NCBI GenBank assembly: GCA_964401865.1
Contig: CAYNZZ010000002.1
Location: forward strand, 30,001-62,000
From: an uncultured Erysipelotrichaceae bacterium
GTDB taxonomy: Bacteria; Bacillota_I; Bacilli_A; Erysipelotrichales; Erysipelotrichaceae
Reading direction: 5' to 3'
DNA: 32,000 nt
Below, one piece after another: positions 5,991 through 26,784 of this stretch (its first letter is position 1; each line of letters begins with the position of its first letter). The translations under genes and the position numbers were made by a program. The notes beneath the pieces are model-generated. The model had not been told where the DNA came from, searched no databases, and was given only the letters and a program-made list of their open reading frames with translations.

Positions 5991-6854
5991 ATGATGAAAG
6001 AAAAATTTAAATACTTATTATATGGTGTATTTATGGGCATATCGAATGTAATTCCGGGCGTTAGTGGTGGCACTATGGCTATCATACTTAATTTTTATGA
6101 TCGTCTTATGGAATCGATCACTTTTAATTTCAAGATTATAAAGAAAAATATATCTTTTCTTATTCCTTTAGGTATCGGTGTAGTTATAGGAATCTTAGGT
6201 TTAAGCAAGGTAATGAATATTTTGTTGATCGATTTTCCTGTTCAGACTTATTTATCGTTTGTTGGAATCGTTATTGGTTCACTCCCTTTGATTTGGTCGA
6301 AAGTGAAAAGAAGCAATGAAAAAGTAAAAATTTCATCTTGGATAAGTTTCGCTGTTATGCTAGGAATAATGATATTTTTAGCCTTTTTTAACGCCGATAA
6401 GGAAACTGCGCCAATCGCATACACATCTTTTTCGATTGAAGCTTGCGTCATGTGCTTTATTGCGATGGTAATCGGTTCATCGACAATGATTATTCCGGGT
6501 ATCAGTGGTTCATTGATGCTTTTGATAATGGGTATGTATGGAACTATATATGGTTTTGTCATTTCAGAATTATATATTCCATTATTAATTCCTGCTGGAT
6601 TAGGTGCTGTTGTTGGTATCTTTGGAGGAGCAAAAATAATTACTTCACTTTTAAAAAGATATGAACAATTGACCTATATGGCTATTTTAGGGTTGCTTAT
6701 TGGTTCTTTAATCGAGCTATTTAAGCGTTCTAACATATTAACTTCTGATTTAATTACCGTTGCAACTGCAGTGGTAATGGCTTTAGTCATGTTTATTATC
6801 GTGTATATGTTTTCGATGGCAGAAATCAAACGCGATGCAAAGGAGAAAGAATAA
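5991..6854 (+). CDS. DUF368 family polytopic membrane protein (family proposed as an undecaprenyl-phosphate translocase, PopT-like)
   Basis: Internally duplicated membrane protein with IPGVSGGTMA (N-half) and IPGISGSLML (C-half) motifs characteristic of DUF368. GGGG at 5984-5987 means ATG 5994 is an alternative start. Confidence 0.75.
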   Translation: MMKEKFKYLLYGVFMGISNVIPGVSGGTMAIILNFYDRLMESITFNFKIIKKNISFLIPLGIGVVIGILGLSKVMNILLIDFPVQTYLSFVGIVIGSLPLIWSKVKRSNEKVKISSWISFAVMLGIMIFLAFFNADKETAPIAYTSFSIEACVMCFIAMVIGSSTMIIPGISGSLMLLIMGMYGTIYGFVISELYIPLLIPAGLGAVVGIFGGAKIITSLLKRYEQLTYMAILGLLIGSLIELFKRSNILTSDLITVATAVVMALVMFIIVYMFSMAEIKRDAKEKE

Positions 6855-7867: not shown

Positions 7868-7914
7868 CTATGAAGATTAATTAAAATTTATCTATAAATA
7901 TAAATATTGAATTA

Positions 7915-7943
7915 TTGATAAATTTCATAATATCTTCTATAAT
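7915..7943 (+). promoter_or_regulatory. Near-consensus SigA-type promoter
   Basis: TTGATA (7915-7920), 17-nt spacer, TATAAT (7938-7943). The A of ATG 7950 lies 7 nt after the -10 and no Shine-Dalgarno sequence is present. Confidence 0.6.
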
Positions 7944-7949
7944 TTAGTT

Positions 7950-8165
7950 ATGAACAAAATGAATGATTTATTGGATTCTTTAGTGTCCATCAGTAGTCTT
8001 AATCAAGGGAAAGCATCGAAAATTATTCAAAGCATAGGGCATGATGATGTAAAAATTGTTGTTAAAAACAATGAACCTATGGCTGCTATTATTTCTGTTT
8101 CTCGTTATAGCGAACTTATAGAGGCAGAAGAAAGACTTTTATCTTTGGAAGGAAGTAATAAATGA
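7950..8165 (+). CDS. Phd/YefM-like (type II antitoxin fold) small protein, orphan
   Basis: 71 aa. The core VSISSLNQGKASKIIQSI..DDVKIVVKNNEPMAAIISVSRYSELIEAEE follows the Phd/YefM N-domain pattern (sequence-specific-looking N-terminus, xxPvAvxxSxxxYexl). The TGA stop overlaps the next ATG. Confidence 0.6.
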   Translation: MNKMNDLLDSLVSISSLNQGKASKIIQSIGHDDVKIVVKNNEPMAAIISVSRYSELIEAEERLLSLEGSNK

Positions 8166-9121
8166 TGAAAAGAAAAATTAGGTATGACCGATTAGCATTG
8201 CTAGTTGGGATAGCGATTTCATTTCTATTAGTTATATTTTTAGGAATTAAATTATTATTCCTTAATGGAAATGATAAAAATCCTTCTAAGACCGATGATT
8301 CTGTAAATAGTACACCGAGTGGCGAGACTACAAATGATGTGAATTTCACTTTGGACGATTACAATATATATGCAAGTGATAAACTTGATTTTCGCTTTAT
8401 TGTTGCTGATATGACTGTTAAATCAAAAGATGGCAAAGGCATTGATTTTGAGATGTCAAAGTTGGAAACGAACGAATTAATTCAATTAAATAATATTGCA
8501 TCATATATTTCTAAGTTTCAAGAAGCTGGATATTCAATTGCGAAATTAAATTTAGCCGATAGCATTAAGAGTGATAGTAGTGAAATGAAAATTCGCCTTT
8601 TTATTCCAGTCACAAAAAGAACCGATTCATTAGTGCTAAACAATATGCTTAATTCTGAACAGATAACTTTTGACTTATCAAAAGAGGCTAAAGATATCGA
8701 AGAATTCAAAAACACCAGTGGAGAAGTAATTTCTGATGGTAAGTCATTTGATATTTATGTATCGAACGCTTATGTCAGTACTTCGATGTATCGAGATTCA
8801 CAAGAATATACTTATCCATCAACAATTAAAGTGTTTACTTATAAATTAAACATCAATAAACTCGAAAAAGAAGGAATTTCCATCGAAGAGGCTTATTTTA
8901 TACCTGATGGAACAGATGAAAAATATAAGGCTTTAGATGCATCTTTCTCTTCTTTGAAAGATGATAATATTATCGGTATTCCTTTAAAGGTCAATGATAC
9001 ATATGCTTTATTCTTTGAATTATACAATCCAGATGAGAATAACATCACTTATAATGGTAAATTACAATTGAAATTCTCGAACTCAGAACAAATAGTAGAA
9101 GTTTCTACAGTAATCCAATAG
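8162..9121 (+). CDS. Bitopic membrane protein with a beta-rich ectodomain (two DUF4352-like halves), function unknown
   Basis: N-terminal basic stretch plus one TM helix (LALLVGIAISFLLVIFLGIKLLF), a Ser/Thr/Asp-rich linker, then two segments with alternating beta-strand-like patterns. No catalytic motif recognised. Confidence 0.6.
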   Translation: MMKRKIRYDRLALLVGIAISFLLVIFLGIKLLFLNGNDKNPSKTDDSVNSTPSGETTNDVNFTLDDYNIYASDKLDFRFIVADMTVKSKDGKGIDFEMSKLETNELIQLNNIASYISKFQEAGYSIAKLNLADSIKSDSSEMKIRLFIPVTKRTDSLVLNNMLNSEQITFDLSKEAKDIEEFKNTSGEVISDGKSFDIYVSNAYVSTSMYRDSQEYTYPSTIKVFTYKLNINKLEKEGISIEEAYFIPDGTDEKYKALDASFSSLKDDNIIGIPLKVNDTYALFFELYNPDENNITYNGKLQLKFSNSEQIVEVSTVIQ

Positions 9122-9129
9122 GTTTATAT

Positions 9130-12105
9130 ATGAAAAATGGACATAAATTTATATTAACTCTTGTCTTGATGACATTATTTCTTTCAGGAACATTACAATT
9201 AAATACTTTTAAAGCTGTAGCTAGTGAGTACTATAGCTTTTCTTGTGGTGTTAATGAGTATGAAGTTTCCTATATCAAGGATGATGGAAACTTTGAGAAA
9301 GAATCATGTCATAAAGATTATGCGAGTGCCAATTCTAGAATGAAAGAATTGGGTGAAGATTATGTGGTCAGAAGTGCTAGTTCTTTGTCGCCGACTAAAA
9401 TTGTATCAATGGTGAGTGGCATGGCCTATAGTTATCCGGCAAGGTCTGGTTCTAGCACGATGAATATTTATGAACATCCATCTGATCGCTCTATCTATAC
9501 AAAGACAACTTATATCACAAACCATTGGGAAATGACATATCATGAAACAGAACGTGTTTTAAGTGATGGCAAGCTTGGAATGATTAAAGTATCGATGAAT
9601 GGCTTTGAGGGTTATGCCGACTTAGAAAACACTGATTTAGTTCCTAGTAAATACATTGAAAAAAGCATCGCTATATATTTGGGTGGCAATGATACAACTG
9701 GCGAAAACGAACAGCCGTTTATGGTTATTCCAAGACAAAAATACTATGAGGCAGTGGATGATGGAAATTATGTAGATTTAGTTTTGACTTATCATCAGAT
9801 GTATCCAAGAAAAGGTTCATCAGAACCGGTTACTTATACATCAAAAATAGGGCCTGCTCCTAGTTTTATGAAACCTGGTCTTAAGTATTATTCAAGTGAT
9901 GGTATTCATTATTATAGCGATACCGAATTGAAAAACTATGTAGGTACTGATTATAGCTATTATCAATATCTACCACTTAGGTCAAAAACCAATATTTCAG
10001 CACCACAATTTGAAGCTTTTTTGAAAAACACTAGTTTTTATAATCAATCTAAATTGAAAAATGAAGCACAGAATTTTATTGATTCGCAAGATTTATACGG
10101 ATGCAATGCATTACTTGTATATGCTTTGGCTTGTCATGAATCGCTTTACGGAACTAGCAATTTTGCAATCGACAGAAATAATCTTTTTGGATGGAATGCA
10201 TTTGATTCCGATCCTAATCAAGCTTCACATTTTGAATCAATATCACAATCTATCAAAGAACAGATGGGTATTAATTTAAGAGGATTTATTGATGTTACTG
10301 ATGGTCGTTTCTTTAATTCGTCACTTGGGAATAAAGGAAGTGGAATGAATGTTAAGTATGCCTCAGATCCTTATTGGGGTGTAAAGATTGCTGCTATTGC
10401 TTATAATATCGATAAATTTGCAAACAATTATAATGGCAACTTAAGTGATTTTGATAAATATGACTTAGCATTGGTTGATGCATTTGATATAGATGTTAAA
10501 CAAGGGCCAGGAAGTAGTACCACTACTTTATATAAGACTGGATATGGCGGAAAATATCAGAAGGATTTTATCGTCATTAAATTAGGGGAAGTTGGTTCCT
10601 ACACTAAAATCCAATCAACTAATGCGATTGATGAAAATGGAAATATTAAAACACATCGAACACCAGTTACAACCGGTGATATAAATCCAATTTCTACTTA
10701 TGATTTCAATAAGAGTGTTGCCTATATTTTAAGTGACAATCTTGTTGCTTTGAATTACGAAAAACAAAATAATGATGCAGGTAAATACATCTTTGAATTA
10801 AACTCTTATGGATGGAACAATGATCTACTTCATATAGAAGGTAAGTCATACGTTGATGGATATAAGATTAGCAGTGTCGAAGATGTTGAGGTTACTTTTG
10901 AATTAATTGGTAGCAATGAAAGTTATTATTTCGTTTTAGACACTAGTTTAAAAAACGATTACGAGGTAAGTTTTATTGATGATATTGATATAAAAGACTT
11001 AAAAATTGATACTTATAAGATGAAAATTGTGACCACTTATAGTTCTAATGATAAGGAATATTCATCGGATATTAAGAATCAACAACTTTTGAATGTCAAA
11101 AATATTAATGGTAAACAGTATTCGTTCTTGATAGATAACTCCTACAATACAATCAGTGTTAGTGAGACAAGATACGAAGCTAACCCAATTAGACAATCAC
11201 TGTATAAAGCAACATTTGATAGTGGTGTTTTGAAAATAAATGGTATTGCAGTACTGGATAGAGTCAACATCATTAATGAAGAAGATATAAGCCATAAACT
11301 CGTTTTAATTGATAAAACTGATAGAGATAAGGTTTATGAATTTGAATTGAATAGTATTGAATCAAAAGGCTTTAGTCTAAATGATGGATATACTTATAAT
11401 TATCCAATGTTTGAAGGGGAAATAGATTTAAATGCCATTGATAATTCAACTTATGATATTTATATTGATGTGAAAGTCGGTAATATTGAAAAAAGAGCAC
11501 GATTATTCTCGACAATGAATTCGCACAACAATATTGTAGATAGTGTTGATAATGTGGTTTATCGTTTAACCACAAATCAGATATATGCTTTCGCATTTGA
11601 ACTGGATATTATGAATAATAATTTAGATTTTGATGAGTTGTCTAAACCGACTTTGAGTAATACTCTATTTGGATACGATACTATTAATGTTAAAGATGGT
11701 GTACTGAATATGAGTGGGTATGGAATGATTTACAAAACAAATTACCCAAATAACTCCAATAAAAAATATCACCAAGTATATTTAGTGGCTGATGACGGTA
11801 AGTCTTATCCTATCAACACTGAATCATATGCTTGCGAAGTAGATTATGCATCAATATTAGGAAGTGATAACAACTTAGATAATATGTGTTTTAGAGCATC
11901 TACTAAACTAGATTCCAGTATTTTACCTAGTGGTCACTATCGAATTTATTTAGGTATAACTTCTGACAATTATAATGATATTGTAGAATTTAGTAATCCT
12001 AATTATCGCAATATAGCTAGTATTGAATATAATGGCAGAAACTTTGTTTTCAACACAAGTTCTATAAGAGACCGTATTGAATTAACTATTGAAGGAAATG
12101 AGTAA
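9130..12105 (+). CDS. Secreted GH73 endo-beta-N-acetylglucosaminidase, 991 aa, with large N- and C-terminal accessory regions
   Basis: Signal peptide (LFLSGTLQLNTFKAVA/SE). Glucosaminidase core NALLVYALACHESLYGTSNFAIDRNNLFGWNAFD ... KYASDPYWG (catalytic Glu context and YAxDPYW motif). The C-terminal roughly 440 aa form three related modules. Confidence 0.85.
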   Translation: MKNGHKFILTLVLMTLFLSGTLQLNTFKAVASEYYSFSCGVNEYEVSYIKDDGNFEKESCHKDYASANSRMKELGEDYVVRSASSLSPTKIVSMVSGMAYSYPARSGSSTMNIYEHPSDRSIYTKTTYITNHWEMTYHETERVLSDGKLGMIKVSMNGFEGYADLENTDLVPSKYIEKSIAIYLGGNDTTGENEQPFMVIPRQKYYEAVDDGNYVDLVLTYHQMYPRKGSSEPVTYTSKIGPAPSFMKPGLKYYSSDGIHYYSDTELKNYVGTDYSYYQYLPLRSKTNISAPQFEAFLKNTSFYNQSKLKNEAQNFIDSQDLYGCNALLVYALACHESLYGTSNFAIDRNNLFGWNAFDSDPNQASHFESISQSIKEQMGINLRGFIDVTDGRFFNSSLGNKGSGMNVKYASDPYWGVKIAAIAYNIDKFANNYNGNLSDFDKYDLALVDAFDIDVKQGPGSSTTTLYKTGYGGKYQKDFIVIKLGEVGSYTKIQSTNAIDENGNIKTHRTPVTTGDINPISTYDFNKSVAYILSDNLVALNYEKQNNDAGKYIFELNSYGWNNDLLHIEGKSYVDGYKISSVEDVEVTFELIGSNESYYFVLDTSLKNDYEVSFIDDIDIKDLKIDTYKMKIVTTYSSNDKEYSSDIKNQQLLNVKNINGKQYSFLIDNSYNTISVSETRYEANPIRQSLYKATFDSGVLKINGIAVLDRVNIINEEDISHKLVLIDKTDRDKVYEFELNSIESKGFSLNDGYTYNYPMFEGEIDLNAIDNSTYDIYIDVKVGNIEKRARLFSTMNSHNNIVDSVDNVVYRLTTNQIYAFAFELDIMNNNLDFDELSKPTLSNTLFGYDTINVKDGVLNMSGYGMIYKTNYPNNSNKKYHQVYLVADDGKSYPINTESYACEVDYASILGSDNNLDNMCFRASTKLDSSILPSGHYRIYLGITSDNYNDIVEFSNPNYRNIASIEYNGRNFVFNTSSIRDRIELTIEGNE

Positions 12106-13791
12106 ATGAAAGATTTTTTTAAGAATAAAACCAATATTATACTAGTGACTGTTTTGGTACTGCTGTGCAGTTTAACTGTTTATCTTTTTGTTATGATTTA
12201 CGGTCCAAAGAATGTTGTTGCTATTGATTTTTCTAATTTGACCGAGCAAGAGATACTAGAGTGGAAGAAATCAAATGAATTGTCTGATGATGTATTTTCT
12301 ATTTCTTATCAATACAACGAAGAAGTAGAAAAAGATAAGGTTTGTTATCAATCGGTAAAAGAAGGAGATTCTATTACAAATGGTATCTCAATTATTATTT
12401 CTAATGGTCCAGATCCAGATTTAGATATTAAACTTCCAAATATTAGCGAAATGGATTATGAAAAAATGAAGGAATGGCTTGATAACAATAAGTTTTCTAA
12501 TTATCACTTTGAGTATGTTTTGGATGACGAACATGAAAAAAATGCAGTATTGAATATAAATGTCCAGAATTCAGCTAAAAGAAGCGATGAAATAATTATT
12601 TTTATTTCTGCTGGCAATGGCGAAGATGATCCAAATATCACAGTTCCTGACTTTAAATCGTATAGTATTGCTGAAATCAATGAATGGGGTGAGGCCAACA
12701 GAATTAATATCAAAATTAATTATGTGTTGTCCTCGACTTATGCAAGCGGAACTATTATCGAACAGAGTTTAAGCTCTTTTAGTGAAATAAGTATTGGTAG
12801 CACAATTACCATTACAATTTCACAAGGCGTTGGAATTACGATGAAGGATTTTTATAATAGTACTCGTTCTAATGTTGAAATATGGTGTAAAGAAAATAAT
12901 ATTAAAGCTAGCTATTATTATGTTGAATCAAATAGTGTAAGTGAAAATAGGGTTGTTTCAACCGAACCAAAAGCCGGTATATTAATCGGCTCAGGTGACA
13001 GTATTAAAGTTTATCTGGCCAAGGAAAAAGAAAATAAAGAAACTGTTATTGTTGATGGTGATAGACTAAACAAGACTGAGAAAGAGTTTGTTGAATATAT
13101 CAAGTCGTTAGGTTTAAATCCAGTCAAAGGAAGTACAGAATATTTTTCCACTACCATTATAAAAGGAAATGTTTTTAGTTATGATGACGGAGAATTTGAT
13201 AAGGGTTCAAATATCAATTACAACTTATCCGCTGGTCCTTATACTTTCGTAGCTAATGAATATAACGGCAAAAGCAAAGGCACAATAAACTCTCTTGTTT
13301 CTGAATACAATAATCGCAATGCACATATATCTGTTAAATTCAATGAAGTCGAGACTAATAAATATAACGAAGGTATTACTTTTGATTGTAAGTCATCTAA
13401 AAATGGAATTAATACTAATGTTACATGTAGCATCGCTAAGAAGGAAAGTGGCAGCGAACCTAGCCCATCTCCAAGTCCTTCGCCTAGCCCGACTCCAAGT
13501 CCTTCGCCTAGCCCGACTCCGTCGCCAACACCTACACCAACTCCAACTCCTGAACAAGAAAACTATATCGGTACGAAACTTTTATATAGCTCGCCAGATG
13601 GTTACGATGCGACATTGGAATTAGTGAATAGAAATTTAGGAGTTTTTGATTTAACTATTGTCGATGGGTTTGATGAAGCTTTAGCATCAGGTCAAATTAT
13701 TTCTATTTCTGTTGGTAATTACGGAACTGCTTATGATCCGGGACTTTATCCAATTTCTACCGAAGTAGTAGTGGTTATTAATAAGAAATAG
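12106..13791 (+). CDS. Membrane-anchored multi-PASTA-repeat protein without a kinase or transpeptidase domain
   Basis: Nine-residue cytoplasmic tail and one TM helix, then about 5-6 repeats of about 65 aa matching the PASTA pattern (e.g. ITVPDFKSYSIAEINEWGEANRINIKINYVLSSTYASGTIIEQSLSSFSEISIGSTITITISQG). A Pro/Ser/Thr linker precedes a final small domain. Confidence 0.7.
   Translation: MKDFFKNKTNIILVTVLVLLCSLTVYLFVMIYGPKNVVAIDFSNLTEQEILEWKKSNELSDDVFSISYQYNEEVEKDKVCYQSVKEGDSITNGISIIISNGPDPDLDIKLPNISEMDYEKMKEWLDNNKFSNYHFEYVLDDEHEKNAVLNINVQNSAKRSDEIIIFISAGNGEDDPNITVPDFKSYSIAEINEWGEANRINIKINYVLSSTYASGTIIEQSLSSFSEISIGSTITITISQGVGITMKDFYNSTRSNVEIWCKENNIKASYYYVESNSVSENRVVSTEPKAGILIGSGDSIKVYLAKEKENKETVIVDGDRLNKTEKEFVEYIKSLGLNPVKGSTEYFSTTIIKGNVFSYDDGEFDKGSNINYNLSAGPYTFVANEYNGKSKGTINSLVSEYNNRNAHISVKFNEVETNKYNEGITFDCKSSKNGINTNVTCSIAKKESGSEPSPSPSPSPSPTPSPSPSPTPSPTPTPTPTPEQENYIGTKLLYSSPDGYDATLELVNRNLGVFDLTIVDGFDEALASGQIISISVGNYGTAYDPGLYPISTEVVVVINKK
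13471..13518 (+). repeat. Perfect 24-bp tandem duplication inside the Pro/Ser/Thr linker
   Basis: CCAAGTCCTTCGCCTAGCCCGACT occurs at 13471-13494 and again at 13495-13518. It lies in a locally GC-rich stretch (about 13455-13550) encoding SPSPSPSPSPTPSPSPSPTPSPTPTPTPTP. Confidence 0.9.
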
Positions 13792-13826: not shown

Positions 13827-13854
13827 TTGACATTGTTATTTTGATGTATATAAT
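13827..13854 (+). promoter_or_regulatory. Consensus SigA-type promoter for the MATE/ATP-grasp unit
   Basis: TTGACA (13827-13832), 16-nt spacer, TATAAT (13849-13854). Confidence 0.6.
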
Positions 13855-13947
13855 TTAAGGAGTGCGAGAGGTACTCCTTTTATGCGATTTATTAAGCGTT
13901 TTTGTGTTTGGGAAGGTATATTAAAGCCTGAACAAATAAGGGGCGAA

Positions 13948-15282
13948 ATGCCAACAAATAAAAGTATATATTTAAAGACATTTGAAATGGCGTGGCCTAG
14001 TGCTTTGGAGAATGTTTTAATTGCTCTGATTGGTGCCATTGATATGATAATGGTAGGTTTTTTGGGTAAGGAAGCAATCTCTGCTGTTGGAATATGCAAT
14101 CAGCCTAAATTTATTGCTTTGGCTCCTATTCTGGCTCTTAATACTGCGACGATAGTTTTTGTAGCTAGAAGAAAAGGGGAAAATAAACAAAAATCTGCCA
14201 ATGATTATACAAGAATAGCGACCATTTTCTCTTTTATTTTCAGTCTATTGGTTTGCACACTTTTTTATTTTAATGCTAAAAGTATTTTGATTTTTGCGGG
14301 TGCCCAGAATGATTATATTGATTTATCAGTCGATTATTTTAGAATCATCTTAATAAGTTTGATACCTTATTCTGTTGGTTTGACTATTACTTCAGCTCAA
14401 AGAGGAGCTGGTTATACAAAAATATCTCTTATTACTAATTTGACTGCTAATTTAGTGAACATCTTTTTTAATTTTTTATTAATTCATGGCTATTGGGGTT
14501 TTCCGGCTTTAGGAGTCAAAGGTGCGGCTATTGCGACGGCTATAGGTAATTGTGTATCCTTTATAGTTGCGATTGTTTCTTTTTCACTTAAAAAGAGATA
14601 TTTACATATTACATTTAATAAAATCGAAAACTTCATCTCTAAAACAAAAAAGTTATTTAAAGTGGCTTTTAATGCCTTTATTGAGCAAATATTCTTACGT
14701 GTTGGCTTCTTTATCTATGCTAAGGTAGTTGCGGGACTTGGAACGGCAGAGTTTGCTGCACATCAGGTATGTATGAATATTATGAATATATCATTTGCCT
14801 TCGGAGATGGTTTGCAGGTGGCTAATACATCACTTGTAGGTCAATCATTGGGACAAAAGAGAAGCGATTTAGCAATTGTATACACTAGAATTGCACAATT
14901 GATAGGTATTTTAATTGCTTTTGTATTGTGCTTAATTATTGGTTTTTATTCAAATGAATTAGTTGCGATTTTTTCACCTGAAGCTGATGTTATTGCCTTG
15001 GCTTCGATTCCGATGAAAATACTGGGTTTTACGGTTTTATTTCAGATTCCTCAAGTTATTGTCATCGGGGCTCTTAGAGGTGCAGGAGATGTTAAATTCG
15101 TTGCGTGGATGATGTTATTATGTGTGGGAATGATTCGTCCAGCTCTATCTTATTTATTTGCCTATCCTTTAGGGCTAGGGATAATTGGAGCATGGATTGG
15201 CTTATTTATTGATCAGATTATGCGTTTTGCGATCTCGTTTGCGAGATTCCATAAAGGTGAATGGTTGAAGATTGTTTTATAA
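13948..15282 (+). CDS. MATE family efflux transporter
   Basis: Twelve-TM-like protein with a typical MATE N-terminus (LKTFEMAWPSALENVLIALIGAIDMIMVGFLGKEAISAVG) and internal duplication. The ORF is open from ATG 13882, but AAGGGG (13938-13943) supports ATG 13948. Confidence 0.85.
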   Translation: MPTNKSIYLKTFEMAWPSALENVLIALIGAIDMIMVGFLGKEAISAVGICNQPKFIALAPILALNTATIVFVARRKGENKQKSANDYTRIATIFSFIFSLLVCTLFYFNAKSILIFAGAQNDYIDLSVDYFRIILISLIPYSVGLTITSAQRGAGYTKISLITNLTANLVNIFFNFLLIHGYWGFPALGVKGAAIATAIGNCVSFIVAIVSFSLKKRYLHITFNKIENFISKTKKLFKVAFNAFIEQIFLRVGFFIYAKVVAGLGTAEFAAHQVCMNIMNISFAFGDGLQVANTSLVGQSLGQKRSDLAIVYTRIAQLIGILIAFVLCLIIGFYSNELVAIFSPEADVIALASIPMKILGFTVLFQIPQVIVIGALRGAGDVKFVAWMMLLCVGMIRPALSYLFAYPLGLGIIGAWIGLFIDQIMRFAISFARFHKGEWLKIVL

Positions 15283-20016: not shown

Positions 20017-21816
20017 ATGTCTTTTTTACCAACTACTTATGAAGAAATGATAGAACAGGGGATAGAAACTCCTGATTTTGTATATGTTACTGGCGACGCC
20101 TATGTCGATCATCCATCTTTTGGGGCAGCTATTATTACCAGAATACTAGAAAATAGAGGTTATAAGGTTTGTGTTCTAGCTGAACCAGATTATAAAACTA
20201 ATAAAGATTTTAAACGTTTTGGTAAACCTCGTTTAGGTTTTTTGATTAGTGGCGGGAATATCGATTCAATGGTCAATAATTACAGTGTGGCAAAGATAAG
20301 GCGCAAACATGATGTTTATTCACACGATGGACTAAATCATCGACCTGATAGAGCTTTAATAGTATATAGTCAATTAGCCAGGAGTGCTTATCCTGATGCT
20401 GATATTTTGATTGGTGGCATTGAGTCAAGTCTTAGAAGATTGGCACATTATGATTATTGGGATGATGATTTAAGAAAGAGTGTTTTAATAGATAGTGGCG
20501 CTGATTTATTGATGTATGGAATGGGAGATATTTCTATTGTCGAGATAGCTGAAGCTTTGGATTCTGGTTTAAGAGCCAAAGATTTAGTTTACTTAGATGG
20601 CGTAGTCTATAAAACCGATGATATTTCATATTTGAGTGATGACTATATTGAACTTCCAAGTTTTAAGGAACTTAAAGAAGACAAACTGAATTATGCTAAG
20701 TCATTTAAGCTACAATATCAAAATACCGACCATTATAGTGCTAAGACTCTAGTAGAAAAGTATGATGATTTCTATATTGTACAGAATAGGCCTAATCGTC
20801 CGCTTACTCAAATGGAATTAGATGATACATATGAGCTTCCTTATGAAAGAGATTACCATTTTTCCTATAAACAAAAAGGAGAACACATATCATCTATTGA
20901 TGAAGTTAAATTCTCATTAGCGTCTAATCGCGGCTGTTTTGGTGGATGTTCGTTTTGTGCTTTAACTTTTCATCAGGGTAGAATAATTCAATCAAGATCG
21001 AAGGAATCGCTTGTTAAAGAAGCGATTAAATTAACTGAGATGGAAGACTTTAAAGGATATATTCACGATGTAGGTGGGCCAACTGCCAATTTCTATAATA
21101 AGGCTTGCGATAAACAAAAGAAATATGGCGTCTGCACTAATAGAGCGTGTCTGTCGCCACGCTGTCCAAATTTAAAAGTTTCTCACACTGATTACTTAGA
21201 TATTTTAAGAGCGATAAGAAGCATTGACGGAATCAAGAAAGTTTTTGTCAGAAGTGGAATAAGATATGATTATTTAATTTATGATGAAGATGAAACATTC
21301 TTTAATGAACTTGTTGAACATCATATTTCTGGTCAATTAAAGGTGGCTCCTGAACATATTGCTGACGAAGTACTAGATGTAATGGGCAAACCTCGTCATG
21401 ATGTATATGAATGCTTTAAGAAAAAATACGAAGAGATAAACAAGAGACATAATAAAGATCAGTACTTGGTTCCTTATTTGATGTCTTCACATCCTGGAAG
21501 CGACATCAATAGTGCCATTGCTTTGGCTGAATACTTGCGCGATATTCATTATCAACCAAAACAGGTACAGGATTTCTATCCGACTCCTTCAACTATTTCA
21601 ACAGTTATTTATTATACAGGCGTTCATCCTTTGACTAATAAAGAAGTATTTGTTGAAAAGAGTCCGCATGGCAAAGCGATTCAAAGAGCTTTGATGCAAT
21701 ATAAAAATCCAAAGAACTATTCATTGGTTTACGAAGCACTTGTGAAAGCTAATCGTTTAGATTTAGTTGGCTATGGTCCAAAATGTTTAATTAAACCTAG
21801 GAGGGTGAAAAAATGA
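20017..21816 (+). CDS. ygiQ: YgiQ family (UPF0313) radical SAM protein
   Basis: N-terminus FLPTTYEEM...VYVTGDAYVDHPSFGAAII is typical of the YgiQ N-domain. Radical SAM cluster motif CFGGCSFC (CX3CX2C). 599 aa. Confidence 0.88.
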   Translation: MSFLPTTYEEMIEQGIETPDFVYVTGDAYVDHPSFGAAIITRILENRGYKVCVLAEPDYKTNKDFKRFGKPRLGFLISGGNIDSMVNNYSVAKIRRKHDVYSHDGLNHRPDRALIVYSQLARSAYPDADILIGGIESSLRRLAHYDYWDDDLRKSVLIDSGADLLMYGMGDISIVEIAEALDSGLRAKDLVYLDGVVYKTDDISYLSDDYIELPSFKELKEDKLNYAKSFKLQYQNTDHYSAKTLVEKYDDFYIVQNRPNRPLTQMELDDTYELPYERDYHFSYKQKGEHISSIDEVKFSLASNRGCFGGCSFCALTFHQGRIIQSRSKESLVKEAIKLTEMEDFKGYIHDVGGPTANFYNKACDKQKKYGVCTNRACLSPRCPNLKVSHTDYLDILRAIRSIDGIKKVFVRSGIRYDYLIYDEDETFFNELVEHHISGQLKVAPEHIADEVLDVMGKPRHDVYECFKKKYEEINKRHNKDQYLVPYLMSSHPGSDINSAIALAEYLRDIHYQPKQVQDFYPTPSTISTVIYYTGVHPLTNKEVFVEKSPHGKAIQRALMQYKNPKNYSLVYEALVKANRLDLVGYGPKCLIKPRRVKK

Positions 21817-22244
21817 AAAAGAAAATAATATATGTATTATCTGCTCTTGCAGTATTGGTGTTTGCATTTGTAATATACTATTTTAATATCGAACAAAGAA
21901 AAGATAATGGCACTAAAACAATAAACATTAGTATTGTTGTCGAACAGAATGCAATATTTAGCGATTCTTTTAAGACTAATTCTTCAACACTTGAGGAATT
22001 GTTGGTTGAATTAAATGAAGAAGGAAAGATTTTTTTAGATTACGAAAATTCAGAATATGGTATGTACATTAAGGGTATGGGCAAAGAAGAATTAATAGTT
22101 GAGGATCCTTCATCATCTAAATATTGGACATATTCTTCTGATAATAACGATGATTGTTTAAAAAATGCTTTTTGTCCAGCTGCCAGCAGTTTGATAATAA
22201 ATGATGGAGATACGTTTGTTTTCGAATTGATAAAATATGAATGA
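21813..22244 (+). CDS. DUF4430 (transcobalamin-like C-terminal domain) protein with an N-terminal membrane anchor
   Basis: The ATGA start overlaps the ygiQ stop. One TM/signal-anchor helix, then the STLEELLVEL...GMYIKGMG...KYWTYSSDNN...LIINDGDTFVFEL pattern of DUF4430. Confidence 0.65.
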   Translation: MKKKIIYVLSALAVLVFAFVIYYFNIEQRKDNGTKTINISIVVEQNAIFSDSFKTNSSTLEELLVELNEEGKIFLDYENSEYGMYIKGMGKEELIVEDPSSSKYWTYSSDNNDDCLKNAFCPAASSLIINDGDTFVFELIKYE

Positions 22245-22731
22245 TATCAGAAGACTTGTTTATGATTCCGTTTTAGTATCTATATTAGTTGTGATAAAGG
22301 AAGCATTATCGTTTATCCCTAATGTCGAACTTGTCACCTTATTATTTATAGTCTATGCTTTGAATATGCGGATATTTGATTTATTACTGATATCTTTTGT
22401 ATTTTCACTTATCGAAAACATTTTGTATGGTTTTAATATTTATTCTCTTTGTTACTTTGTTGTGTGGGGGATAATTGTTTGTGTATCTTATCTTTTTAGA
22501 TATAAGCTTACCGATGAGTATAAAGTAGCTACATTGTCGCTGACTTTTGGCTTATTATTTGATGTTCCTTTTAGTATTCCATATTTTTTACTCGGCATAA
22601 ATGTTGGTATATCTTATTTATTGAGTGGCTTGTTATTTACATTAGTTCATGGCATTAGTAATTTTATAGTTGCTTTATTACTGTTTAAACCAATTAATTC
22701 AAGTTTTAAGAAATTATGTCAATTTAAATGA
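22237..22731 (+). CDS. Small polytopic membrane protein, ECF-transporter S-component-like
   Basis: 164 aa with about 5-6 hydrophobic helices and an IPNVELVTLL segment reminiscent of S-component families. Overlaps the DUF4430 gene by 8 nt. The assignment is tentative. Confidence 0.4.
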   Translation: MNDIRRLVYDSVLVSILVVIKEALSFIPNVELVTLLFIVYALNMRIFDLLLISFVFSLIENILYGFNIYSLCYFVVWGIIVCVSYLFRYKLTDEYKVATLSLTFGLLFDVPFSIPYFLLGINVGISYLLSGLLFTLVHGISNFIVALLLFKPINSSFKKLCQFK

Positions 22732-23784: not shown

Positions 23785-24793
23785 TTATTTATTTAATATT
23801 CTGCTAATTTTAGGCATTGGAGCAATTGTAATATATTTTTCTCTATCTGGAAATGAAGAAGGAGTTTTTGAAGCCTTTAATAGCATTCGCATTGAATATA
23901 TGTTGTTGTGCTTATTGCTTTTATTTTTATGGCAATTTTCAGTTGGCTCAATACTTACAATTTTTGCGAAATTATACCGTCCTAAATATCGTTACTCACA
24001 AGGCTTATTGAATTCCATTGTCGCATCCTTTTTTCATGGTATTACACCTAGCGCATCAGGCGGACAGATTGCTCAATTTTATGTTTTTAAAAAACAGGGT
24101 ATTCAAACTGGTGAGGCTGGTTCAATTTTGTGGACTGAGTTTATTGTTTATCAAAGTACGATGTGTGTTTTAGGGTTGATATTGATTCTTTTGAAGTTTC
24201 CTTTTTTCTTTAATCGGTATTCAAATCTATTTATTTTTGTTATCGTGGGTTTTGTATTAAATGCTTCGATTATTTTTGCCTTGTACGCCTTAGCGAAATT
24301 CAAAAGAGTTCACAATTGGATAATGACAAAAGGTGTTGATTTAGCATATAAATTTCACATTATTAAAGATAAAGAAAAAGCTATTGATAGTATAAATGTG
24401 CAATTAAATAAGTTTACATATGAAGCTTCACATTTTAAAGAGCATAAAAAAGAACTGTTTTTTTCAGTTGTATTATGTGTGGTTAGATTAGTTATTTATT
24501 ATTCAATTCCATTTGTAATATTTGTAGCAATGGGCATCCATGCTGATTTTGATTTGTTTATTAATTGTTTGGCAATGGGTTCTTTTGTATCCATTGTTTC
24601 AGGACTTATTCCTATACCTGGTGCTAGTGGAGGAGCTGAAGCGATATTTGTTATGATGTTTAGCAATTTATTTGATCCTACCTTGGTTACAAGTGTTATG
24701 CTGATATGGCGTTTTTTGACCTATTATTTAATAATTTTGGTAGGCAGTTTGTGTTTTATATATGCAAAAATGATGAAAGTTGAGGAAGACTAA
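23765..24793 (+). CDS. UPF0104 / lysyl-phosphatidylglycerol-synthase-TM-region-like (flippase-like) membrane protein
   Basis: About 8 TM helices with GITPSASGGQIAQ and PIPGASGGAEA motifs typical of the MprF-flippase-like family. No C-terminal synthase domain. Overlaps the upstream GT4 gene by 20 nt. Confidence 0.75.
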   Translation: MKKIFSNYLFNILLILGIGAIVIYFSLSGNEEGVFEAFNSIRIEYMLLCLLLLFLWQFSVGSILTIFAKLYRPKYRYSQGLLNSIVASFFHGITPSASGGQIAQFYVFKKQGIQTGEAGSILWTEFIVYQSTMCVLGLILILLKFPFFFNRYSNLFIFVIVGFVLNASIIFALYALAKFKRVHNWIMTKGVDLAYKFHIIKDKEKAIDSINVQLNKFTYEASHFKEHKKELFFSVVLCVVRLVIYYSIPFVIFVAMGIHADFDLFINCLAMGSFVSIVSGLIPIPGASGGAEAIFVMMFSNLFDPTLVTSVMLIWRFLTYYLIILVGSLCFIYAKMMKVEED

Positions 24794-26784
24794 TGCGTGT
24801 TGCTTTATTTACTGATACATACTTGCCTGATGTAAATGGTGTAGTTACATCAATTGAACTGTTGCGTCAGGAACTAGAAAAAAACGGTCATGATGCATAT
24901 GTTGTATGTACTTATCCAGGCATTATGAAAATTAAACAAGATGGTAAGATTATTAGACTACCTGGCATTGAACTTAAACAATTGTATGGTTATGCCATGG
25001 CTAGTCCTATTCACTATCTTTTTATCGATGACCTAAAGAAGTTAAATTTTGATATTATTCATGTTCATACTGAATTCGGAGTTGGCATTTTCGCAAATAT
25101 AGTTGCTAAGCAACTACACATTCCACTTGTAAGAACGTATCATACTACATATGAAGATTATACACACTATATTAATTTTACTCATTTAGAAAGTATTGAT
25201 AAATTGGCGAAAAAGGCTGTTTCAGCCATTTCTAAGGCTTATGGAGATTCATGTATGCAATTAATTGCCCCATCGCGCAAAACTAAAAATATGTTACTTA
25301 GCTATGGAATAAAAACACCAATCTCTATCATTCCAACTGGTATAGAACTATCTAGATTTAAAAGAGAAAATACATCGATTGAGACAATTAAAAAGACAAG
25401 ATCAGAATTGGGTGTTAAAGACGATGAAAAAATGCTACTTTATGTCGGAAGAATCGCTCAAGAAAAATCTATTGATTTGATCATTAGAACTTTTAAGAAT
25501 ATAAAAGCTGATGGTCTTAAAGTAAAATTGGTTATTGTTGGTGGCGGACCGCAATTAGATGATTTAAAGAAAATGACTGATAATTACCAATTGAATGGTT
25601 ATATAGTTTTTGTGGGAAAAGTGCCATTTGATAATGTGCCGACTTATTATCATAGTGCTGATGCATTTATCAGTGCTTCAACTACTGAAACTCAAGGTAT
25701 GACATATATTGAAGCACTTTCTAGCGGGTTAGTTGTTTTTGCGCGCTATGATGAAGTTTTGGATGATATTGTATATGATAATGAAAATGGGTTCTTATTT
25801 AATGACGAAGAAGAATTGTTAGTTAAGATAAAAGAATTCTTATCATTAGATGACAGTCGAATAAATCAAATGTCTAAAAAATCAATTGAATCAACAATAA
25901 ATTATAATGCTGATATATTTGGTAAAAATATAATCGAGTTATATAACAAGGCTTTGAATGATTTTACCGATAATTATATAATCAGTGCTGTTCGTTTGAA
26001 AAGTGACTATGTGGTGATTGACATAACTTCTAGTAATGGTCAGGAAGAAAAAATTTATGTATCGCTTGATCAGTATTATGATTTTGGTCTTAGAAAAGAT
26101 GGGAAGCTAACTTTTAGTCAATATGATGAAATCAAGAAGAACGAAGGTTGTGTTTTGGCATATCGTGCTAGTTTAAAAAGATTAGCCAATCGAGATTATA
26201 CGGTTAAAGAAATGTATGATTATTTAAATAAGAATTATAATCTTGATATTAAACAAATCAATAAGATTATTGATAAGCTAATCGAAATTAATTTGTTAGA
26301 TGATTACCGTTATTGTTTATACAAGATCGAAACTTATGAAAAGGCCTTATATTCGCAAAAAAAGATTATTCAAAATTTGCGTAAAGTCGGTGTACCTTTA
26401 AATATCATTGAAGAACTTGTTATTGATAAAAAAGATGAAGATGAAGAATTCAATAAAGCGATGAAACTGGCTGAAAAATACCAGGCTCAGATTCATAACA
26501 AATCTTTAAATATGAAAAAACAGCTTATTTTTAAAAAACTGGTGCAAGAAGGTTTTGCGATAGATATAGCTAATAAGGCATTATCTTTATTGTCTTTTCA
26601 AGAGGAAACATTTGAAGAAAAGTTTTTGCTGCGCAAAGAGGCGAATAAAGCTAAATCAAGATTTGAAAAGAAGTATCATGGAACCGAATTGAGAAATAGA
26701 ATATATCATTCATTGGTATCAAAAGGTTTCAATATTGATGCAGTATATGCGATTTTAAATGAAATGGAGTGGAATGATGACTAA
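24793..26784 (+). CDS. Fusion protein: GT4 glycosyltransferase (alMGS-like monoglucosyl-diacylglycerol synthase type) joined to a full-length RecX-like C-terminal domain
   Basis: N-terminal about 390 aa: MRVALFTDTYLPDVNGVVTSI, ETQGMTYIEALSSG (GT4). C-terminal about 270 aa (from about nt 25966): IISAVRLKSDYVVIDI...YDFGLRKDGKLT...AYRASLKRLANRDYTVKEMYDYL...HSLVSKGFNIDAVYAILNEM follows the firmicute RecX layout. The frame is continuous with no stop or internal SD/ATG at the junction. Confidence 0.75.
   Translation: MRVALFTDTYLPDVNGVVTSIELLRQELEKNGHDAYVVCTYPGIMKIKQDGKIIRLPGIELKQLYGYAMASPIHYLFIDDLKKLNFDIIHVHTEFGVGIFANIVAKQLHIPLVRTYHTTYEDYTHYINFTHLESIDKLAKKAVSAISKAYGDSCMQLIAPSRKTKNMLLSYGIKTPISIIPTGIELSRFKRENTSIETIKKTRSELGVKDDEKMLLYVGRIAQEKSIDLIIRTFKNIKADGLKVKLVIVGGGPQLDDLKKMTDNYQLNGYIVFVGKVPFDNVPTYYHSADAFISASTTETQGMTYIEALSSGLVVFARYDEVLDDIVYDNENGFLFNDEEELLVKIKEFLSLDDSRINQMSKKSIESTINYNADIFGKNIIELYNKALNDFTDNYIISAVRLKSDYVVIDITSSNGQEEKIYVSLDQYYDFGLRKDGKLTFSQYDEIKKNEGCVLAYRASLKRLANRDYTVKEMYDYLNKNYNLDIKQINKIIDKLIEINLLDDYRYCLYKIETYEKALYSQKKIIQNLRKVGVPLNIIEELVIDKKDEDEEFNKAMKLAEKYQAQIHNKSLNMKKQLIFKKLVQEGFAIDIANKALSLLSFQEETFEEKFLLRKEANKAKSRFEKKYHGTELRNRIYHSLVSKGFNIDAVYAILNEMEWNDD

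Follow-up and report, generated by a model that had tools for sequence, protein, structure and literature searches.

What is a gene for a 71-aa protein with the pattern of an antitoxin N-domain doing at the head of three genes for extracytoplasmic peptidoglycan proteins? The question is raised by a 32,000-nucleotide stretch of DNA from an uncultured Erysipelotrichaceae bacterium (contig CAYNZZ010000002.1, positions 30,001 to 62,000; hereafter the window), for which an original prediction from sequence had proposed a four-gene unit. When re-read, all four were located on the plus strand where they had been placed: PHD71 (7950-8165, 71 aa, cytoplasmic), ANC319 (8162-9121, 319 aa), GH73 (9130-12105, 991 aa) and PASTA561 (12106-13791, 561 aa). 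The junctions were also as described. The ATGA overlap of PHD71 and ANC319 was read directly at 8162-8165, the 8-nt gap between ANC319 and GH73 was seen at 9122-9129, and GH73 abuts PASTA561 stop-to-start (TAA-ATG, 12103-12108). No terminator had been noticed between the four genes, and terminator-like sites in the block were indeed about as frequent as chance predicts (3 against 2.5), the sole notable one being a weak 5-bp stem (9814-9827). RNA folding of the junctions and flanks gave no convincing terminator in the block or upstream of the PHD71 promoter. The Rfam search of the window matched no RNA family, and there is thus no sign of a riboswitch or attenuator. The unit ends before a perfect TTGACA-16-TATAAT promoter for the next gene (13827-13854, plus strand), which encodes a MATE transporter (13882-15282).

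The 991-aa product is a predicted enzyme, a LytB-like GH73 N-acetylglucosaminidase. Its earlier assignment as a secreted GH73 glucosaminidase was borne out by a PF01832 (Glucosaminidase) score of 49.7 bits against a cut-off of 30.2, and the N-terminus is signal-peptide-like. The WW-like and GH73 catalytic region (aa 244-428, nt 9859-10413) matched the LytB structures 4q2w/7pj3 (E 2e-23). Across at least 30 orthologues, the catalytic Glu of the HES motif, aligned to ES of LytB, is invariant, the NLFGWNA motif is invariant or nearly so, and YASDPYWG is nearly invariant. The conserved N-domain with two invariant Cys residues (aa ~35-243) and the three C-terminal repeats of ~130 aa (nt 10819-11160, 11221-11607 and 11695-12087) matched no known family. 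A prophage lysis cassette was considered as an explanation of the locus and rejected; nothing related to the N-domain of GH73 was present in viral contigs.

PASTA561 is a bitopic protein that starts ~10 residues before its TM segment (aa ~11-32). It had been described as carrying about six PASTA-like repeats. PF03793 was matched with 87.3 bits in four stretches (Pfam), and an iterated profile started from the Pfam-confirmed PASTA gave six clear repeats (aa 39-99, 110-168, 180-239, 246-304, 318-375 and 382-443; nt 12220-13434 overall) and a weak seventh. The repeats are followed by a Ser/Pro/Thr linker (nt 13441-13575), which contains a 24-nt tandem repeat at 13459-13520, and by a C-terminal domain of ~70 aa. 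The repeat number varies from 5 to 10 across the family. The reported lack of a kinase or PBP domain was confirmed by the absence of Pkinase and transpeptidase matches (Pfam, NCBIfam); only positions 339-563 of the PknB_PASTA_kin model, its TM and PASTA part, are covered. Separately, a defence-system reading was rejected, as PADLOC gave only PASTA-driven matches to PD-T4-6.

ANC319 had been called an N-terminally anchored, beta-rich ectoprotein, and the predicted structure agrees: a short basic cytoplasmic tail (KRKIRYDRL), with ~7 residues modelled in the cytoplasm, leads into a TM helix (aa 8-34), beyond which lie two ectodomains with a beta-sandwich fold (aa ~55-175 and aa ~185-319). The family comprises 168 clusters at 50% identity with a uniform length of 300-335 aa. 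Weak fold likeness was found to YxkC, CD630_09570 and MPT63 (E 6e-4 to 3e-3, TM 0.45-0.49), which we take to be DUF4352 or MPT63 family proteins. The earlier guess of a DUF4352-like protein therefore stands at the level of fold and fails as sequence-family membership: ANC319 and ten diverse relatives gave no Pfam match, DUF4352/MPT63-type families included. No toxin family was matched in Pfam, NCBIfam, PHROGs or PADLOC. The tail motif K-I/V-R-x-D-R-L is invariant in the close clade, is kept in lineages that lack PHD71 (L003, L020), and decays in distant family members. GpsB-type docking through this motif was considered and set aside.

The identity of the 71-aa protein as a Phd/YefM N-domain required qualification. 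PHD71 is a divergent homologue, and its own matches fall below threshold: 25.0 bits to PF02604 PhdYeFM (E 1.7e-5; gathering score 29.8), 19.3 against a cut-off of 20.8 for TIGR01552 (NCBIfam), and E 0.004 for phrog_2268 (PHROGs). Among its homologues, 58 of 86 matched PF02604 at E ≤ 0.01 (best E 1.4e-5). Outside its own orthologues, the protein closest to PHD71 is a 111-aa Phd antitoxin of a phage, encoded next to a ParE-like toxin (L067). It is 41% identical to PHD71 over 56 gapless residues and passes the PF02604 gathering score (30.5 bits), and it is from this identity, rather than from the sub-threshold match of PHD71 itself, that the homology to Phd/YefM is drawn. Foldseek on the predicted fold placed PfiA and Phd on top without significance (E 0.4-2). 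PDB sequence searches with the PHD71 profile and the single sequence returned nothing, or one spurious designed-repeat match, and hhalign of the profile against E. coli YefM gave no signal, a single-sequence template being uninformative.

The alignment to the phage antitoxin stops at residue 59 of 71, leaving ~12 residues compared with ~47 in the relative, and all PHD71 orthologues are 62-89 aa long. Judged by its length, the C-terminal tail is too short for a toxin-binding region. The remaining N-domain is under strong purifying selection (dN 0.03-0.25 with dS saturated), its orthologues being 66-86% identical where those of ANC319 are 33-57% identical, and its conservation is at the housekeeping level, like that of galE. 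At the same time, the gene is absent from at least seven lineages that retain the downstream genes, and two or more nested lineages have lost it with ANC319, GH73 and PASTA561 intact. The proposal that the four genes form a unit thus holds in that they are conserved together, and has to be relaxed for PHD71, which is optional.

The promoter of PHD71 (7915-7943, plus strand) is of the sigma-70 type and consists of TTGATA (7915-7920), 17 nt and TATAAT (7938-7943), in accordance with the near-consensus promoter reported earlier (11 of 12 consensus positions). Promoter-like sites are common in the AT-rich DNA of the window (49 found, 43 expected); the position of this one is kept across 21 loci, and in 18 of these the -10 hexamer lies exactly at -12 to -7 from the A of the ATG (7950 in the window). 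Because of this -10 position and because no Shine-Dalgarno sequence is present before the ATG, the PHD71 mRNA is predicted to be leaderless. The promoter also carries a candidate operator (7889-7924, plus strand) of 12-nt phased units, TATCTATAAATA (7889-7900) and TATTGATAAATT (7913-7924), the second of which contains the -35 box. This is a weakened version of the array of 2-4 TATnGAYAAAT units in sister lineages; L014 and L016, for instance, have three. The motif GA[TC]AAA[TA] occurred in 47 copies in 20 promoters compared with 2.9 in shuffles, and 24 of 30 adjacent spacings were multiples of 12. The array is degenerate in the window's own subclade, with two units in the window and, when the pattern is applied strictly, no unit in L001, L002 and L004. 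Loci without PHD71 have a Shine-Dalgarno-led start and no phased array, so that the leaderless design and the arrays are found only where PHD71 is present. The phased repeats point to autoregulation by PHD71, since they are absent where its gene is absent, and PHD71 is probably the regulator of the operon; being AT-rich, the repeats could instead act as a UP-like element, as a curvature element or as a binding site for a different regulator. In the loci without PHD71 there is a palindrome, TATAGATAAAATCTATA, perhaps the remnant of an operator or else a weak terminator of galE.

More than 25 Erysipelotrichaceae loci, all compared loci being from uncultured organisms, contain the four-gene set with the genes abutting or overlapping. 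Wherever the neighbours are visible in an Erysipelotrichaceae-type locus, the ANC319, GH73 and PASTA genes lie side by side and either overlap or are separated by no more than ~20 nt, and the junctions remain overlapping or abutting down to 27-35% identity. The operon site is fixed downstream of uppS-cdsA-dxr-rseP-galE, and the flanking genes for DUF368, Sm_multidrug_ex, MATE and ATP-grasp proteins come and go between loci. Synteny extends over more than 10 kb in nearly all loci, flanks included. The operon is vertically inherited and lineage-specific in Erysipelotrichaceae (Solobacterium/Bulleidia-related clade). Since most of the conservation is synteny within the family, vertical inheritance alone explains part of it. 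Pairs of the genes are found outside this site: a GH73+PASTA pair with a 4-nt overlap adjoins T2SSE, RRXRR-HNH and restriction-modification system genes (L024/L025), and an anchor+GH73 pair occurs in another, non-syntenic context (L046/L049). Deeper branches carry anchor and GH73 with no PHD71. Relatives with GH73 and no anchor (L042) or no PASTA (L044-L046, L049) were also found, indicating that the enzyme family does not strictly depend on either partner.

The reading that we favour, with somewhat better than even confidence, is a cell-wall operon in which a GH73 enzyme and two membrane-anchored partners that dock it stand behind a detoothed, autoregulating antitoxin-type protein, PHD71. The earlier view of a wall-remodelling unit headed by a toxin-antitoxin-derived protein is supported. 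From the gene content, domains, conservation, coupling, promoter geometry and repeat array observed, we infer DNA binding by PHD71, contacts among the proteins and a role in cell separation. The PASTA561 rod would recognise nascent or uncrosslinked peptidoglycan at the septum and dock or position GH73, as PASTA4 of StkP does for LytB, and ANC319 may act as a second membrane tether or gate. Together, PASTA561 and ANC319 would limit the cutting of glycans to the separation of daughter cells or the maturation of the wall. The first cistron would be an addition of the crown clade, a tail-less Phd/YefM-type protein made from a predicted leaderless mRNA, with its translation coupled to that of ANC319. 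The most probable target of PHD71 is the array of 12-nt phased TATnGAYAAAT repeats that overlaps the -35 box, and binding there would autoregulate the operon.

Four other explanations were weighed against this one. The original prediction had offered a toxin-antitoxin-like arrangement with a harmful, envelope-acting partner, in which PHD71 would neutralise ANC319 and/or the hydrolase and its degradation would lead to lysis. The gene order and the ATGA overlap are typical of antitoxin-toxin pairs, and the nearest non-orthologous relative of PHD71 is a true phage antitoxin beside a ParE-like toxin. However, PHD71 ends ~12 residues past its N-domain where that relative has an extension of ~47 aa, the next gene encodes a 319-aa bitopic protein with ~7 cytoplasmic residues and no toxin family match, and in every locus the set keeps the same place within a housekeeping block. 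Moreover, deeper branches hold the anchor and GH73 without PHD71, which is itself conserved at the housekeeping level, unlike fast-evolving antitoxins. We regard this explanation as highly improbable: the locus is not a toxin-antitoxin system, since PHD71 has been lost at least twice with its partners kept, has no toxin-binding tail and evolves at a housekeeping-slow rate. PHD71 might instead be a cytoplasmic adaptor or chaperone acting on the juxtamembrane tail of ANC319 or on another factor, and so control insertion or activity of the complex. The translational coupling of the two genes, the invariance of the tail motif in the close clade and the extreme conservation of PHD71, as for a surface with several partners, would fit such a role. 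The motif is nevertheless kept in the lineages without PHD71 (L003, L020), characterised Phd/YefM proteins use the N-domain for DNA binding and dimerisation (PMC1802561), and the phased repeats co-vary with the presence of PHD71, which together make the adaptor improbable.

The four genes could also be neighbours without a joint function, with PHD71 a relic orphan antitoxin, or one that regulates something else, and the three wall proteins acting independently and kept together by shared ancestry only. The synteny of nearly all loci over more than 10 kb is what this would predict, and orphan antitoxins are described in the literature as common in genomes. Yet the tight junctions are kept to 27-35% identity while the flanks turn over, and the GH73+PASTA and anchor+GH73 pairs recur outside synteny. 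A relic does not fit the strong purifying selection and conserved leaderless design of PHD71, and we give this explanation a low probability, similar to that of the adaptor. Slightly less improbable, though still unlikely, is that the module is real and serves another purpose, such as wall turnover or glycan-length control, surface-polymer anchoring, or regulated autolysis or DNA release. The C-terminal repeats and N-domain of GH73 belong to no known family, a second GH73+PASTA copy lies among mobile-type genes, and SagB of S. aureus with its membrane partner trims nascent glycans (bioRxiv 10.1101/2020.05.21.109470). Against this, by resemblance only, the best solved relative of GH73 is the separation enzyme LytB and the sole characterised PASTA-GH73 partnership concerns separation.

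The favoured reading of a docked and autoregulated wall operon can be extended to one that we consider unlikely, in which a toxin-less antitoxin N-domain was recruited as the repressor of a dedicated septal-cleavage machine made of GH73, a kinase-less PASTA receptor or ruler and a double beta-sandwich tether. If true, the repressor would be scarce, made from a leaderless mRNA and maybe labile to proteolysis, and stress that destabilises it or favours leaderless translation would retune autolysin output. The PASTA repeat number (5-10) would set the cutting distance from the membrane. PASTA561 would then be the first PASTA protein standing on its own to be given a partner, and PHD71 an example of an antitoxin tamed for the control of the envelope.

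A literature search found no paper describing the arrangement, consistent with the earlier impression that no system of this composition had been described. The operon logic is not without precedent, because the placement of LytB by a PASTA domain is already known (PMC10434722). That streptococcal StkP-LytB pair is the only characterised link between a PASTA repeat and a wall hydrolase. The present locus provides independent genomic evidence for such a partnership, as the genes are co-encoded family-wide and the pair also occurs outside the syntenic site. The kinase-less PASTA561 separates a docking or ruler role of PASTA from kinase signalling in a testable form. The locus also gives context to the unannotated 168-cluster ANC319 family. 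PHD71 is a clean case of an antitoxin N-domain that, minus toxin and tail, is now a conserved first cistron with a candidate operator, and it bears on the recycling of toxin-antitoxin parts into housekeeping regulation. The carriers are common and poorly studied gut and oral Erysipelotrichaceae.

Among known systems, lytABC of Bacillus subtilis is an operon of an autolysin and a modifier protein. Like lytABC and the YxkC-DacA pair (PDB 9a4z), the present locus combines a wall enzyme with a non-catalytic accessory protein; however, LytC is an amidase and not a GH73 enzyme, and B. subtilis LytB and LytA are unrelated to ANC319 and PASTA561. YxkC is among the best single-domain fold matches of ANC319, a weak likeness (TM 0.45, 19% identity) with no sequence-family match. 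The SagB-SpdC pair of Staphylococcus aureus resembles the locus in that a membrane partner is thought to set the activity or placement of a GH73 enzyme (bioRxiv 10.1101/2020.05.21.109470). There, SagB is membrane-anchored and SpdC is polytopic and CAAX-protease-like, whereas GH73 of the present locus appears to be secreted and has bitopic partners whose ectodomains are large.

PHD71 shares with Phd/YefM antitoxins (E. coli YefM-YoeB and the phage pair of L067) a homologous N-domain, the first position in the operon and the overlap with the next gene, and differs in having neither a toxin-binding tail nor a cytoplasmic toxin, in being fixed in the core genome with housekeeping-level conservation, and in its predicted leaderless mRNA. 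YefM operators have paired sites with their centres 12 bp apart, no further than 80 bp from the start codon (PMC1802561); the repeated sites here are likewise 12 bp apart and within ~80-105 bp of the start codon. They form an array of 2-4 TATnGAYAAAT units in place of the paired TGTACA palindromes (PMC1802561).

The closest parallel is the StkP-LytB pair for cell separation in Streptococcus pneumoniae (PMC10434722, citing Zucchini et al. 2018), in which a WW-like and GH73 catalytic module is likewise paired with a membrane-anchored extracellular PASTA array. LytB finds its place by binding PASTA4 of StkP with its N and M modules, at a KD of 22 uM (PMC10434722). In that pair the distal PASTA docks and localises the hydrolase; here genetic linkage points to a putative partnership. 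GH73 has no choline-binding module and carries an unrelated Cys-containing N-domain and 2-3 novel repeats of ~130 aa. Its would-be PASTA-binding region is unrelated to the choline-binding N and M modules of LytB. In contrast to StkP, PASTA561 has no kinase domain, its PASTA repeat number varies from 5 to 10 between loci, and it is encoded directly downstream of the hydrolase in the same operon.

Four genes lie in one direction on the forward strand with exactly the coordinates predicted: PHD71, a Phd/YefM-like gene (7950-8165, 71 aa), the anchored-protein gene ANC319 (8162-9121, 319 aa), the hydrolase gene GH73 (9130-12105, 991 aa) and the PASTA-protein gene PASTA561 (12106-13791, 561 aa). The sequence shows the ATGA overlap at 8162-8165, a gap of 8 nt before GH73 and the TAA-ATG abutment before PASTA561, and the expected promoter upstream of PHD71 was found as TTGATA-17-TATAAT at 7915-7943. 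The claim that no terminator separates the genes also held, as terminator-type hairpins inside the block occurred at chance level and RNA folding of its junctions gave no convincing terminator. The next gene, encoding a MATE transporter, has a perfect promoter at 13827-13854. Directly 3' of it, a 9-bp hairpin (AAGGAGUGC-GAGAG-GUACUCCUU) followed by UUUUAUG (13857-13883) sequesters the MATE Shine-Dalgarno sequence (z-score -2.65 for the 101-nt stretch); this element could be the terminator of the four-gene operon, or it could act on MATE translationally or by attenuation.

The window, at about 31% GC, is a core chromosomal region in which the four genes follow tsf-pyrH-frr-uppS-cdsA-dxr-rseP-PF04018-galE and precede genes for MATE, an ATP-grasp protein, PFOR, a radical-SAM protein and glycosyltransferases. 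No Rfam family was detected in the window. The PF04018 gene (undecaprenyl-phosphate translocase-like, 5991-6854), between rseP and galE, was found only in the window's subclade when compared with loci L007-L017; its site holds an Sm_multidrug_ex gene in some sister lineages and nothing in others. Between the radical-SAM and glycosyltransferase genes, two overlapping ORFs of 143 and 164 aa (21813-22731) had no Pfam match. At the C-terminus of a 663-aa GT4 glycosyltransferase (24793-26784) are RecX-type three-helix domains (PF21981, 31.2 bits; PF21982, 30.9 bits; cut-off 26 each), an unusual fusion.

Matches of PHD71 to Phd/YefM were below threshold in Pfam (25.0 bits, threshold 29.8), NCBIfam (19.3, threshold 20.8) and PHROGs (E 0.004), and 58 of its 86 homologues showed the same weak Pfam match. 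Its AlphaFold model (pLDDT 72) consists of a helix, a beta-hairpin and a long helix, and the best PDB matches, antitoxin PfiA and a Phd protein, were not significant. The nearest non-orthologous relative is a 111-aa protein of a phage locus (L067), which exceeds the Pfam Phd/YefM threshold and whose stop overlaps the start of a ParE-like toxin. PHD71 is read as an antitoxin N-domain that lacks the tail for toxin binding because it is 41% identical, gap-free, to the first ~64 residues of this antitoxin and ends where the C-terminal extension of the latter begins; on sequence comparison, the phage protein is the decisive link of PHD71 to Phd/YefM. In L067 (5977-6647), and also in L068-L073, this canonical antitoxin and its toxin, both 111 aa, are encoded by an insertion between the phage tape-measure gene and tail genes. 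PHD71 is a real and strongly constrained gene, with 66-86% identity across loci versus only 33-57% for the neighboring ANC319, and dN of 0.03-0.25 with synonymous sites saturated.

Co-occurrence was analyzed in contigs of ANC319 and PHD71 homologues, a genome scan, and a scan of metagenomes that used the GH73 N-domain as seed; the related loci came from MAGs of uncultured Erysipelotrichaceae or Solobacterium. Conservation of the gene set was confirmed, with the anchor-GH73-PASTA order present in every Erysipelotrichaceae-type locus with visible neighbors and its junctions overlapping or abutting, whereas the flanking genes vary. PHD71 orthologues were present in about 30 fetched loci, roughly 20 once near-identical loci were collapsed, and absent from L003, L009, L011, L020/21, L022, L044/45 and L046/49. 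A single gain followed by two or more losses is suggested by a rough neighbor-joining tree built from the GH73 N-domain, in which L020/22 and L003/8/9/11, both PHD-less, nest in PHD-bearing clades and the deeper branches lack the gene. Outside the syntenic site, L046/49 encode the anchor and GH73 followed by a cadherin-like secreted protein in place of PASTA, and in L024/25 GH73 and PASTA adjoin a T2SSE ATPase, an RRXRR-HNH protein and a restriction-modification system, suggesting that these two genes can move or duplicate as a cassette. This second-context copy (6977-11622 in L024/L025) has neither anchor nor PHD, and the restriction-modification system is of the Bpu10I type. Neither partner was found beside more distantly related GH73 proteins (24-39% identity).

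Of 21 PHD-bearing loci, 18 have the -10 hexamer at exactly -12 to -7 from the A of the ATG and lack a Shine-Dalgarno sequence; by textbook geometry, the mRNA is predicted to be leaderless. Upstream are two to four copies of the 12-mer TATnGAYAAATw, one including the -35 box. The motif occurred 47 times in 20 promoters versus 2.9 in shuffles and 24 of 30 adjacent spacings were multiples of 12, in loci that are related to each other and AT-rich. The window's own subclade has only a degenerate array, with two units here (7889-7900 and 7913-7924). YefM operators have paired sites 12 bp apart, at most 80 bp from the start codon (PMC1802561). In PHD-less loci, the phased array is absent, the start is led by a Shine-Dalgarno sequence and the promoter has an extended -10. 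Between galE and the anchor gene, L003 (~997-1020) and equivalently L009 and L011 contain the palindrome TATAGAT-AAA-ATCTATA followed by a T-run, possibly the remnant of one half of the PHD operator or else a weak terminator for galE.

GH73 has an above-threshold Pfam Glucosaminidase match, and among solved structures the catalytic module of pneumococcal LytB is closest (E 2e-23 over aa 244-428). Among orthologues the catalytic Glu does not vary, and the motifs NLFGWNA and YASDPYWG are nearly invariant; the N-domain is conserved and contains two invariant Cys, and novel C-terminal repeats of ~130 aa number three here versus two in most orthologues. PASTA561 comprises a TM segment, six PASTA repeats (5-10 in orthologues), a Ser/Pro/Thr linker and a small C-terminal domain, and only the TM-plus-PASTA half of the PASTA-kinase model aligns to it. 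Matches to Trypan_PARP, internalin K and SslE are spurious and caused by the linker. The coding sequence of the linker (13441-13575) contains a 24-nt tandem repeat (13459-13520), and protein lengths within the 90% identity cluster are 552, 553 or 561 aa, differences that may reflect repeat slippage there.

ANC319 had no match in Pfam, NCBIfam, PHROGs or PADLOC, and none of the family members tested matched Pfam. Clustering at 50% identity gave only 168 family clusters in a set of 1.84 billion representatives, with lengths of 300-335 aa in nearly all members. In the model (pLDDT 76.5), a TM helix (aa 8-34) precedes two beta-sandwich domains, and the protein weakly resembles RbmA (two FnIII domains) as a whole and YxkC, CD630_09570 and MPT63 as single domains. 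The cytoplasmic tail next to the helix has the motif K-(I/V)-R-x-D-R-(L/I) (aa 2-11, 8165-8194); invariant in the close clade and retained in PHD-less loci, it decays in distant members, and a cytoplasmic factor could dock on it. One 956-aa sequence among the representatives (P0223) fuses the TM segment and first beta-sandwich to a long coiled-coil, tape-measure-like protein with a Gly-rich tail, and may derive from a phage or from chimeric assembly.

The original prediction was accurate as an observation and partly as an interpretation: the wall-hydrolase operon with a toxin-antitoxin-derived head stood, and the alternative of a toxin-antitoxin system was rejected, failing four of five defining features. 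The best-supported reading of the block is a dedicated wall-hydrolase operon in which the leading gene product, a domesticated antitoxin N-domain, is probably an autoregulator, and we infer DNA binding, protein contacts and a role in cell separation. A literature search found no paper on such an arrangement. The PASTA-hydrolase pairing parallels that of StkP PASTA4 with LytB (PMC10434722), and the membrane-partner logic of the operon parallels that of SagB-SpdC.
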